Virus record (IMG/VR): IMGVR_UViG_2531839193_000007
From: a virus
Lineage: Duplodnaviria > Heunggongvirae > Uroviricota > Caudoviricetes
Reading direction: 5' to 3' (one strand)
Length of the DNA: 31,139 nucleotides
The position numbers were made by a program. Below, one piece after another: positions 1-3,000 of this stretch; position 1 is the stretch's first letter; each line of letters opens with the position of its first letter.

Positions 1-3000
1 CGAAAAACGAGCAGTGGTACTGAACCAGATTGTTGATCGCCGGACGGCATCGTTACGCGGTGTGGGGATGCTGACAAATATTAACCATGCAGCGATGAAT
101 ACACTTCTCGGCGAGCGGGTGATGGATCGCATGGTCATGAACGGCGGGCGCTGGGTGAATTTTAACTGGGAGAGCTGGCGTCCGAATGTTAGCCATTCGA
201 GGGTTGTTAAGTAGTTTCAGGAGGATTTATGGCGAAACCTTTTACTCCCGAACAGCGGGAAGAACTGAAGACGCGAATTGTGGAACTCGTGCATCAGGAC
301 GGTCGGGTCACGATTCGGCAGTTGTCAGATGAAACAGGTATCAGTCGTGCGTCTGTCGGTCGCTTATGCATAGAACTGGTCGCAAGTGGTGATGTATATA
401 ATTCTGGCTACGGGGTATTTCCCTCTGAACAGGCTCATAAAGACTGGCAAAACGCCCGCAAAAAGCTATCGAGGGTAAAGGTGAAGAAACCGGTTGTGGT
501 TGATCCTGACCTTATCTGGTCATTACCAGACGGAGAAATACGCCGCTACGACAGGCGCCTGAATATAATCTGTCGCGAGTGCCGGAAGAGCGAAGCTATG
601 AGGTGTACTGGCAATAGCGGACACTACCATTTGTCTTTTTTAAGCAGCCATCTGATGATATTTTTCCCTGAAGGCTGCCGGGGAGATATTCCCCAGACGA
701 GAGTGACGACGCTGACGATTGTAGAAAATCTCAATGTATTCCCGTATTACTGAGATGGCTTCATCCCGGTTATTAAAACGATAGTGGCTCAGGCTCTCAT
801 TTTTCAGCGTTCCCCAGAAGCTTTCCATCGGAGCGTTGTCGTAACAGTTACCTTTACGCGACATTGATGTTTTCAGACCAAACTGCTCCTGTATGACCCG
901 GTAATCGTATGCGCAGTACTGTGAACCTCGATCAGAGTGGTGGATTAGCCCGGCAGGTGGGCGCTGGCTCCTGAGCGCCATAAACAGGGCTTTACCTGTC
1001 AGCTCTTTTGTCATGCGCTCTCCCATGGCGTAGCCGACAATTTCGCACGTATAAACATCTTTGATGCCAGCGAGGTACAACCATCCCTCCTGTGTGGCAA
1101 CATACGTCAGGTCCGCCACCCAGACCTGATTTGGTGCTGTAGGAGCGAACGTCTGGTTCAGCAGATTTGGCGCAACTGGCAGATTGTGGTTCGAGTTCGT
1201 AGTCGCTCTGAACTTGCGTTTCTGCTTACAGCGTAGCCTTAGCTCCTTACGAAGACGTGCCAGTCGGTCACGACCAACGATGATGCCATTCTCTGCCAGC
1301 TCCGTCTGGAGCCGCCGGGTTCCATATGTTTCGCGAGTGCGGATATGTGCCACCTTAATCTCCAGTTTTAGCCGCTCATCACTTTGTTTTCTGTCTGAGG
1401 GTTCATGCTGTACCCAGTTGTAATAACCGCTCCTGGATACACCAAATACCTGACACATCGCTTCAATGGGAAATTGTTGTCGCCATTGTTCGATTAACGC
1501 GTATTTTTTCGGCGACTCCTGTGCAAAATACGCTGTTGACTTTTTTTAATATATCTCGCTCAAGGCGAGCTTCATTTAACGCCTTACGCAGTTGCAGAAT
1601 TTCAGATTCCAGTTCAGCCACCGTGCGGGAACCAGGAGTACCGAGCCCTTTTCTGGCGGCGGTAACCCATTGTCCTAAAGTGCCTTCAGGAAGAGATAAT
1701 CGGGAAGCGCCTTCACTGATCGAAAGTTGATTTTCAAGAACCGTTCTGACAGCTTCGGCTTTGAACTCTTTAGAGTAACGTTGGGTTTTTCTGCTCATTA
1801 TTAGCTCCTTCTGATGCCATTCTATTTCAGGAAGGAGTGTCCGTTAAACTCAGGCTACCTCAGTACGGGTTGACGAAAAAGAGCGTCAGGTCCGCTGTAA
1901 AATCTGCGGTGCGGTTGTGGAGCCGTTTGACTGGATGCTCTCTGTGGCAAAAAGAGAAACCAGACTGGCAGATGATGTAAGGCTATTGCGCCAGGAGGAA
2001 CAGGAAAGGCGGAGAAATATAGAAAAGCTGATACAGATTGAGCGTAACGCGAAAGCGCGGATACGCAGGGCGACAAAATCCAGAACTGAATAATTAAATT
2101 TAGCACTGTTAAAAATTTAATCCTTAACCGGAGGGATTTCTGCACCCTCAAATCATCAGGAGACCACCCGAAAGGGCGGGGAGCAGTCACACATCTGTTT
2201 CCGATAGCCCCGTTCTAATGCTACACTCTTTGATATTTTTATGACCCCAATAAACATATTTATGACAGTTGCTGATTTCAAACGGCCCAAATTGGAGCTC
2301 CCAAACGGGGCAAACAAACTACTACTGCACTCTTGCTGTGCTCCATGTTCCGGTGAGGTGATGGAGGCGCTTCAGGCCTCGGGAATCGACTACACCATCT
2401 TTTTCTACAACCCGAACATTCATCCTCAGAAAGAGTATTTAATTCGTAAGGATGAGAATATTCGCTTTGCTGAACAACACGGCGTGCCGTTTATTGATGC
2501 TGATTACGACACAGACAACTGGTTTGAACGAGCCAAAGGAATGGAATGGGAGCCCGAACGAGGGATCCGTTGCACCATGTGTTTTGACATGCGTTTTGAG
2601 CGGACAGCGCTGTACGCCGCTGAAAATGGTTTCAGTGTGATCAGCAGTTCACTGGGCATTTCACGCTGGAAAAATATGCAGCAGGTTAACGACTGTGGGC
2701 GGCGAGCCGTCGCGCATTATCCGGGCATGGTGTACTGGGATTATAACTGGCGCAAGCAGGGCGGCTCGTCCCGTATGATTGAAATCAGCAAGCGCGAAAA
2801 ATTCTATCAGCAGGAATATTGTGGCTGTGTGTATTCTCTGCGCGATACCAATCTACACCGCAAATCTCAGGGACGCCCTCTTATCAAAATTGGTCAACTC
2901 CACTACGGTAAAGAAGAGAAGGAGTGATTTTATGGGGCACCTTTCTGATTGATTTCATATTGGCGAGGTAAGTAGAATGACTGCGGGTGCTTGAGGCTAT

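Follow-up and report, generated by a model that had tools for sequence, protein, structure and literature searches.

A prophage-borne queH cassette in Escherichia coli that probably encodes a cobalamin-independent epoxyqueuosine reductase

The window analyzed in this work is a stretch of 31,139 nt from IMG/VR virus record IMGVR_UViG_2531839193_000007 (Caudoviricetes). It carries queH, a gene of the cobalamin-independent epoxyqueuosine reductase family, in the early/nin region of a lambdoid prophage, and this gene is probably functional and carried as self-contained cargo. In E. coli the last step of queuosine (Q) synthesis, the conversion of epoxyqueuosine (oQ) to Q, is catalyzed by QueG, a cobalamin/[4Fe-4S] protein (PMC4646009, PMC11841063), and the same papers describe this step as long shown to depend on cobamide. 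QueH is accepted as a cobalamin-independent, non-orthologous replacement of QueG, and the complete pathway to Q is encoded in E. coli and Shigella (PMC5372724). The features of the queH locus are as follows, with residues numbered in the 228-codon open reading frame (ORF).

2191 to 2933, plus strand: queH cassette (promoter-like region, coding sequence and about 6 nt past the stop codon), delimited by homology boundaries among lambdoid prophages
2199 to 2204, plus strand: putative weak -35-like hexamer TTCCGA (3 of 6 consensus positions), 17 nt upstream of the -10-like element
2219 to 2227, plus strand: putative promoter, extended -10-like element TGcTACACT, 43 nt before the ATG at 2262; transcript start expected near 2233-2236
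2241 to 2261, plus strand: first seven codons of the longest ORF, probably 5' leader and not coding
2262 to 2927, plus strand: queH coding sequence, 221 amino acids and stop codon, cobalamin-independent epoxyqueuosine reductase family (Pfam, PDB, Foldseek, RefSeq identity)
2328 to 2351, plus strand: HSCCAPCS motif, residues 30-37, with Cys32, Cys33 and Cys36 aligned to Thermotoga maritima C9, C10 and D13
2571 to 2582, plus strand: CTMC motif, residues 111-114, with Cys111 and Cys114 aligned to T. maritima C87 and C90
2820 to 2828, plus strand: CGC of the YCGC motif (residues 193-196), with Cys194 and Cys196 aligned to T. maritima C169 and C171

ORF calling on the window gave an uninterrupted ATG frame of 228 codons at 2241-2927 on the plus strand, exactly as a preliminary description of this DNA had stated. 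The limits of the frame were right, but the start codon was less well placed, and the second ATG at 2262 (221 amino acids) is more likely the true start than 2241. This start is preferred because the identical RefSeq protein (WP_012421537.1, named epoxyqueuosine reductase QueH) begins at window position 2262, because the chromosomal homologues have their N-terminus at the equivalent residue, and because the ATG at 2241 would lie only about 5-8 nt from the transcript start expected from the promoter-like element, that is, nearly at the 5' end of the message. The nucleotide sequence of queH was also 100% identical to a RefSeq coding sequence named QueH.

The protein matched Pfam family PF02677 (QueH, formerly DUF208) with 220.6 bits and an E-value of 1.9e-65, where the gathering score is 23.5 bits, and the match covered profile positions 1-174 of 175. 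It also matched the sequence of the T. maritima QueH crystal structure (PDB 7lc5) with an E-value of 5.3e-22 and about 30% identity. A full-length Pfam match together with the match to T. maritima QueH means that the identification is real and far beyond chance. No Pfam family other than QueH was matched in the protein, and no NCBIfam model matched it, although RefSeq names the identical protein QueH.

The preliminary description had recognized a QueH/DUF208 protein from three cysteine motifs and had taken these as the ligand pattern of the family; the profile match agrees with it, and HSCCAPCS, CTMC and YCGC were all present at the residues given above. In a pairwise alignment, C9, C10, C87, C90, C169 and C171 of T. 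maritima QueH paired with Cys32, Cys33, Cys111, Cys114, Cys194 and Cys196 of the window protein. These six cysteines were invariant in all 13 sequences of a multiple alignment spanning 31-100% identity, which included the window protein, T. maritima QueH, seven diverse sequences from phage collections (most probably bacterial DNA) and four chromosomal proteobacterial genes. All cysteine motifs were kept in 86 of 86 prophage and phage copies. Li et al. are said to have shown in 2021 that the six conserved cysteines bind a [4Fe-4S] cluster and an adjacent iron. The site of T. maritima Asp13 is Cys36 in the window protein; it was Cys in 12 of the 13 aligned sequences and Asp only in T. maritima, so CCAPC is the usual form of the family and CCAPD of T. 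maritima is the exception. The PDB entries for T. maritima QueH include, according to their titles, C9S and D13N mutants and a queuosine complex, which marks the C9 and D13 positions as mechanistically important.

An AlphaFold2 model of the window protein, made with 28 homologues, had a pLDDT (predicted local distance difference test) of 71.5 and a pTM (predicted template modelling score) of 0.73. When it was compared with the PDB by Foldseek, the top five matches were all T. maritima QueH entries (E 1e-9 to 1e-8, root-mean-square deviation 3.5-3.9), with target-normalised template modelling (TM) scores of 0.75-0.79. PP-loop folds ranked after QueH, with TtuA and LarE at E 2e-5 and weaker. These PP-loop/AANH enzymes (TtuA, LarE, TilS) are the next-best structural matches, but their similarity is much weaker (TM 0.3-0.4). 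The JGI label for homologues is "predicted AANH superfamily ATPase", and in our own reading of the alignment the CCAPC motif appears to occupy the PP-loop position. Membership in the QueH family is as secure as sequence and predicted structure allow.

T. maritima QueH (PDB 7lc5, 7lc7, 9deu; PF02677, COG1636) and the window protein are alike in the full-length profile, the predicted fold and the six cysteines, and the expected reaction, oQ-tRNA to Q-tRNA without cobalamin, would also be alike. They differ in that the T. maritima gene is chromosomal and the window gene is phage-borne, in the CCAPD and CCAPC forms of the first motif, and in extensions of the window protein, about 20 residues at the N-terminus and about 25 at the C-terminus, which are conserved in the proteobacterial clade. 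Such extensions, absent from T. maritima QueH, and the crystallization of the T. maritima enzyme with free GMP and free queuosine would fit a QueH-fold iron-sulfur enzyme that acts on another substrate: 7-deazaguanine in phage DNA, a free nucleoside in salvage, or some other epoxide. Phages do use the preQ0 branch for modification of their DNA (PMC6884629). We consider such a change of substrate quite improbable. The window protein has 80-92% identity to single-copy chromosomal queH genes, which makes a substrate change unlikely, and the extensions are common to those chromosomal genes. A Pfam scan of the larger ORFs of the window found no homologue of Tgt/DpdA or of QueC/D/E, and no PADLOC defence model was matched at E up to 0.01. 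A role in DNA modification was rejected since these partner genes were not found among the ORFs scanned, and the nucleoside- or DNA-modification function that had been suggested at first is thus unsupported. The known phage 7-deazaguanine clusters (DpdA with FolE/QueD/QueE/QueC, as in phage 9g) likewise consist of phage genes from the queuosine/archaeosine pathway (PMC6884629). However, they combine the early preQ0 branch with a DNA transglycosylase, whereas the window has the late, tRNA-specific step alone and no transglycosylase among the ORFs scanned.

The limits of the cassette were obtained from 85 related loci: the isolated temperate phage HannyBb, 80 prophage contigs of IMG/VR, and four loci from E. 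coli genomes, of which one is O157:H7. The left edge of homology lay at about 2190-2199 in 67 of the 85 loci, and the right edge, at its shortest, at about 2930-2939. Homology between HannyBb and the window extended over 2191-2933. With edges as sharp as these near 2191 and 2933, the mobile unit is about 740 bp, made up of about 70 bp of upstream DNA and queH, and the cassette appears to recombine as one unit among lambdoid prophages.

The upstream DNA within the cassette contains the 9-mer TGCTACACT, which was identical at -43 in 84 of 86 prophage and phage loci, and the -35 position read TCCCGA or TTCCGA in 82 of 86. Among the matches listed, the 11 closest species-representative loci (83-99% identity) come from Scandinavium, Kluyvera, Enterobacter, Symbiopectobacterium and others, and eight of the 11 have the pattern TGnTAnnnT at -42 to -45, where the chance expectation is 0.018 per locus. 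Ten of these 11 loci were chromosomal, with upstream DNA that was otherwise unrelated. The extended -10 element surfaced only through this comparison of orthologous upstream regions. In its layout, TGn followed by TAnnnT, TGCTACACT resembles an extended -10 promoter, and its conservation suggests promoter activity. The element was also seen in the forms TGCTACACT and TGCTACAAT before queH in both prophage and chromosomal copies, with flanks otherwise unrelated. Rfam matched neither a riboswitch nor any other RNA upstream of queH, whether the limit was the gathering threshold or an E-value of 1, and a consensus terminator scan of 1800-3600 found no terminator-like site. An independently expressed cargo gene ("moron") is a discrete insertion between phage modules with a promoter of its own and usually a terminator; the cassette has sharp mosaic edges and, in the conserved -10-like element, a predicted promoter, but no terminator-like site was found.

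Pairwise comparison of five prophage and phage alleles by the Nei-Gojobori method gave ratios of nonsynonymous to synonymous divergence (dN/dS) of 0.025-0.076, at dS up to 0.46, and an intact ORF of 221-222 amino acids was present in 86 of 86 phage and prophage copies. Within the phage gene pool the gene is under strong purifying selection. We also weighed whether queH could be a neutral or decaying passenger that was captured once from a chromosome and then hitch-hiked in a successful prophage lineage. The prophage of the window is indeed decaying (its holin gene is disrupted, its Q-like gene is frameshifted, and insertion sequences (IS) have entered it at three places), and the host already has QueG. 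Nevertheless, strong purifying selection disfavours a dead passenger, and so do the intact copies, the occurrence of the cassette in several prophage backbones (Rac-like, Qin-like and O157 type) and a match over at least 80% of the gene in 985 of the 995 E. coli genomes that carry it, so that a passenger seems very improbable indeed. Strong purifying selection together with the apparent promoter of its own means that phage queH is probably used. The intact state of queH in the defective prophage of the window proves little by itself, because the neighbouring hokD, DUF1367 and ybcO genes are also intact despite the defect and the region is nearly identical to an intact relative.

At a nucleotide identity of at least 90%, queH was present in 995 of 5426 complete E. 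coli genomes, nearly always as a single chromosomal copy. The carriers, about 18% of the complete genomes, include an E. coli B derivative and an O157:H7 strain. The B12-dependent queG was identified in all 5426 genomes, including all 995 with queH. It means that QueH in E. coli is an addition and never a replacement. The pattern of QueH where QueG is absent was thus not seen in this species, which concerns distribution only and has no bearing on family membership. QueG (E. coli yjeS/queG) catalyzes the same final step (PMC5372724, PMC4646009) and is co-resident in every queH-positive E. coli genome, but it has an unrelated fold akin to reductive dehalogenases, requires B12 and is a core gene, whereas queH is prophage cargo. 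A phage-carried queH had been described at first as unusual for enterobacteria. The universal presence of queG in E. coli agrees with this, but rarity does not hold, considering the 995 of 5426 genomes, the existing RefSeq name and the ordinary chromosomal homologues.

In IMG/VR, 189 viral contigs had a queH of the window type; a search with a diverse QueH profile gave 208 contigs in all, so about 19 were of other kinds. Seven of these (L189-L195, 74-142 kb) came from one metagenome (IMG/VR 3300045988) and carried a distant QueH homologue; in the one that was examined (L190), a T4-like portal gene and a prohead protease gene lay within 8 kb of it. QueH thus appears to be sporadically present in other phage lineages. 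On a separate 153-kb contig (L187), queH lay beside genes for a nucleoside 2-deoxyribosyltransferase, a xanthine/uracil-type permease, a dUTPase and a radical-SAM protein. Among 50,697 GenBank phage records, the only convincing phage with a window-type queH was HannyBb. A record named "Acinetobacter phage MD-2021a" (CAKLQH020000001.1, 328 kb, queH 78%) was rejected as a phage, as it has soxR, dadA, tadA and type VI secretion system genes; its queH is labelled "putative prophage protein", and the record appears to be misfiled. Faecal contigs named "Bacteriophage sp." and records named "Staphylococcus phage" or "Listeria phage" were used for QueH sequence diversity only and not as evidence of carriage by phages.

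Outside E. coli, a QueH relative was encoded in 592 of 600 species-representative matches among the matches listed. In the best 80 of these loci (L101-L180), a lambdoid context was found for Escherichia albertii only. The next closest copies among the best 80, from Scandinavium (92%), Kluyvera (91%) and Enterobacter (89-90%), were in unrelated chromosomal surroundings. Further chromosomal copies were identified in Erwinia (86%), where the order is purL, queH and a two-component system, in Providencia (84%), where queH adjoins tmcA, and in Photorhabdus (80%); no lambdoid markers were found within 6 kb of the chromosomal copies. Even copies from Sphingomonas, Rhizobium, Paracoccus, Neisseriaceae, Stenotrophomonas and Pseudomonas had 75-80% identity among the matches listed, and on these alignments the QueH clade is strikingly conserved across Proteobacteria. 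For a few of the same 80 loci the taxon label is implausible (Bacillus subtilis, Avacidaminococcus), and contamination or recent transfer is suspected.

The chromosomal queH of Enterobacterales encodes a near-identical protein of equal length and equal N-terminus, and in the closest genera TGnTAnnnT stands about 43 nt upstream as in the window; it differs in lying among housekeeping or accessory genes, while the window gene lies in a lambdoid prophage. Most simply, the phage gene would be a captured chromosomal gene of Enterobacteriaceae that was brought along with its promoter-like region. Capture from the chromosome is the simplest explanation since the nearest copies outside E. coli lie among unrelated chromosomal genes.

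The other features of the window that bear on the state of the prophage and on the neighbours of queH are as follows.

613 to 1857: IS3-family element, interrupting DUF977 and a hypothetical gene upstream of queH
2985 to 3160: sok (Rfam, 117 bits), the next RNA element after queH
3098 to 3310: Hok/Gef ORF of the hok/sok type I toxin-antitoxin module (2985-3310), directly downstream of queH
5586 to 6832: second IS, IS3-family, replacing the Arg-Thr-Gly tRNA genes; its end abuts or just overlaps the 3' end of tRNA(CAT)
7571 to 8901: third IS, inside the holin gene
about 20030 to 20533: IS1, in the chromosomal stretch
28446 to 29264: further IS3-family copy, in the second prophage

Upstream of queH there are a YdaV-like replication gene and DUF977, and downstream there are hok/sok, DUF1367, YbcO/DUF1364, a Q-like DUF1133 gene and a tRNA, then lysis and head genes. 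These neighbours confirm the early/nin setting that had been proposed. An intact relative is present in E. coli FDAARGOS_944, which is 99.8% identical over window positions 1858-5585 and 100% identical in queH. There the order before queH is cI-like repressor, cro, ydaT, an O-like gene, ydaV, DUF977 and a hypothetical gene, and the order after it is hokD/sok, a hypothetical gene, DUF1367, DUF1364 (YbcO) and DUF1133 (Q-like), followed further downstream by the tRNA(CAT)-Arg-Thr-Gly array, holin, RrrD, Rz, terminase and portal genes. The window prophage is a degraded copy of a prophage of this type. Relative to FDAARGOS_944, its Q-like DUF1133 gene (4772-5326) has a 1-nt deletion at about 4972, which causes a frameshift and explains the split ORFs at 4652-4987 and 5011-5325. 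The three IS insertions in this prophage are presumably relatives of IS600, IS911 and IS2. So heavy a load of IS elements points to an E. coli genome that is Shigella-like or has otherwise undergone IS expansion.

The first prophage ends near 17 kb, and the chromosome begins at about 17.8 kb (17821) with a pgl-like lactonase gene, a LysR regulator gene, IS1, an aconitase-family gene and a pectinesterase-like gene. A second prophage begins with a lambda-type integrase gene (24601-25671) and has AntA-like and DUF551 genes; we take the region 17821-25671 to resemble the lambda attachment region. Two Rfam matches above the gathering score are unrelated to queH: naRNA4 at 23044-23114 on the plus strand (63 bits, chromosomal stretch) and sRNA-Xcc1 at 26615-26703 on the minus strand (68 bits, second prophage).

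Across related Rac/Qin-type lambdoid prophages queH was found at a fixed position. Its slot is always just after the replication/DUF977 block, and the prophage backbones differ: Rac-like (racR-ydaS-ydaT), Qin-like (dicB/dicC) in E. coli B, and the O157:H7 type. In the E. coli B derivative (6022-6687 of locus L019), queH is on the dicB/dicC side of a Qin-like defective prophage. The junction of queH with hok/sok is common to most relatives and is not shared by the O157:H7 relative; in that prophage (6872-8882 of locus L018, Z1768), a cytosine methyltransferase gene and a gene for an NgoMIV-family restriction endonuclease follow queH and replace hok/sok. The site that follows queH appears to be a hot-spot for cargo.

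The phage tRNA about 2.6 kb from queH, noticed earlier, is real (5515-5588). It has the anticodon CAT, its counterpart in FDAARGOS_944 is labelled tRNA-Ile in RefSeq, and there it is the first of the four genes CAT-Arg-Thr-Gly. Across 60 related loci the phage tRNAs were CAT, Arg(TCT/TCG), Thr(TGT), Gly(TCC) and Lys(TTT), and none had a GUN anticodon of the Asn, Asp, His or Tyr type. The suggested functional tie between queH and the tRNA was rejected, as no linked phage tRNA has a queuosine-type anticodon, and the neighbouring tRNA therefore plays no part in the function of queH.

The place of queH in the prophage raises the question of who benefits from it. The same activity could serve the phage itself, if transcription from the early-right promoter (pR) after induction or infection tops up Q for translation of late genes when B12 is scarce. 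In every relative examined, queH is co-oriented with the early-right genes and lies between the replication genes and the Q-like antiterminator gene, and there is no terminator-like site between it and its neighbours. The isolated phage HannyBb carries it, and the few unrelated large phage contigs with T4-like portal and prohead protease genes also encode a QueH homologue. On the other hand, the promoter-like element is common to stand-alone chromosomal orthologues, which argues for independent expression, and queH is intact in prophages unable to grow lytically, such as those of the window and of E. coli B. We regard a benefit to the phage as possible but on balance unlikely to be the explanation. 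It is compatible with a benefit to the lysogen, as the two are not mutually exclusive.

Our preferred explanation, to which we give a probability of about 0.75, is that the cassette encodes a functional QueH and is self-contained cargo that would provide a second, B12-independent route from oQ to Q. The protein would be an iron-sulfur enzyme that reduces oQ to Q without cobalamin, and its site of action would be position 34 of tRNA-Asn, tRNA-Asp, tRNA-His and tRNA-Tyr. The cassette of about 740 bp, with a putative extended -10 promoter of its own, is flanked by the replication module on one side and the hok/sok-nin region on the other, in a lambdoid prophage of the Rac/Qin type, which in the window is crippled by IS elements. 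A lysogen or an infected cell would thereby gain a B12-independent way to finish Q beside QueG. In the lysogen this would depend on a working promoter, whereas in phage development read-through from the early-right operon would in any case express the gene. We infer that queH is expressed in the lysogen from an active promoter of its own, and that the cassette is favoured by selection for its independence from B12. E. coli is unable to make vitamin B12 de novo and reportedly accumulates oQ when B12 is lacking.

Several points weigh against this explanation. No functional difference between Q and oQ is known to us, and the selective benefit is a conjecture for that reason. Corrinoids are common in the gut, and QueG may usually suffice given such a supply. 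The hexamer TTCCGA is weak evidence for a -35 element by itself, a two-hexamer consensus scan called no plus-strand promoter in the DNA before queH, and the role of the conserved 9-mer could differ from that of a promoter. No obvious Shine-Dalgarno sequence was read before the ATG at 2241 or the ATG at 2262. The confidence of the AlphaFold2 model was only moderate. Finally, a literature search that paired QueH, DUF208, COG1636 or epoxyqueuosine reductase with phage or prophage brought up no publication on a QueH carried by a prophage. For the reaction itself, liquid chromatography-mass spectrometry of nucleosides is the suitable assay, and the acryloylaminophenylboronic acid (APB) gel probably cannot separate oQ from Q because both keep the cis-diol.

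The QueH family, its function and the annotation of the identical protein are already known, so the finding is correct and largely ordinary as annotation; it adds nothing new there since RefSeq already names the identical protein QueH. For phages, a 2019 survey reported no QueA, QueG or QueH homologue in the viruses analyzed (PMC6884629). PHROGs files the family of the window protein as phrog_3217 with "unknown function"; the model, which starts only at residue 34, has no CCAPC motif, probably because the member genes were called from a downstream start. HannyBb (8001-8687 of locus L002) annotates queH as hypothetical. The labels in PHROGs and HannyBb mean that phage annotation pipelines miss QueH though RefSeq names it.

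About one in five complete E. coli genomes have two unrelated enzymes for the last step of Q synthesis, a core B12-dependent one and a prophage-borne B12-independent one. Strain K-12, in which the Q pathway was worked out, has to our knowledge only QueG. Because the B lineage carries queH, B-derived strains may differ from K-12 in the B12 dependence of the conversion of oQ to Q. We tentatively suggest, at somewhat less than even odds, that prophage queH is a lysogenic-conversion gene for the tRNA epitranscriptome, which would be expressed from its own promoter in uninduced lysogens and make the last step of Q synthesis independent of B12. If this is true, E. coli strains would differ in their oQ/Q status when corrinoids are scarce, and the difference could affect the decoding of NAU/NAC codons, fitness or virulence, as well as the quality of tRNA or protein from B-derived laboratory strains. 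It would also be the first documented temperate phage that completes a tRNA hypermodification of its host. That a temperate phage makes the Q maturation of its host independent of B12 in roughly one in five E. coli genomes, those of the B lineage among them, is a testable and moderately interesting idea.

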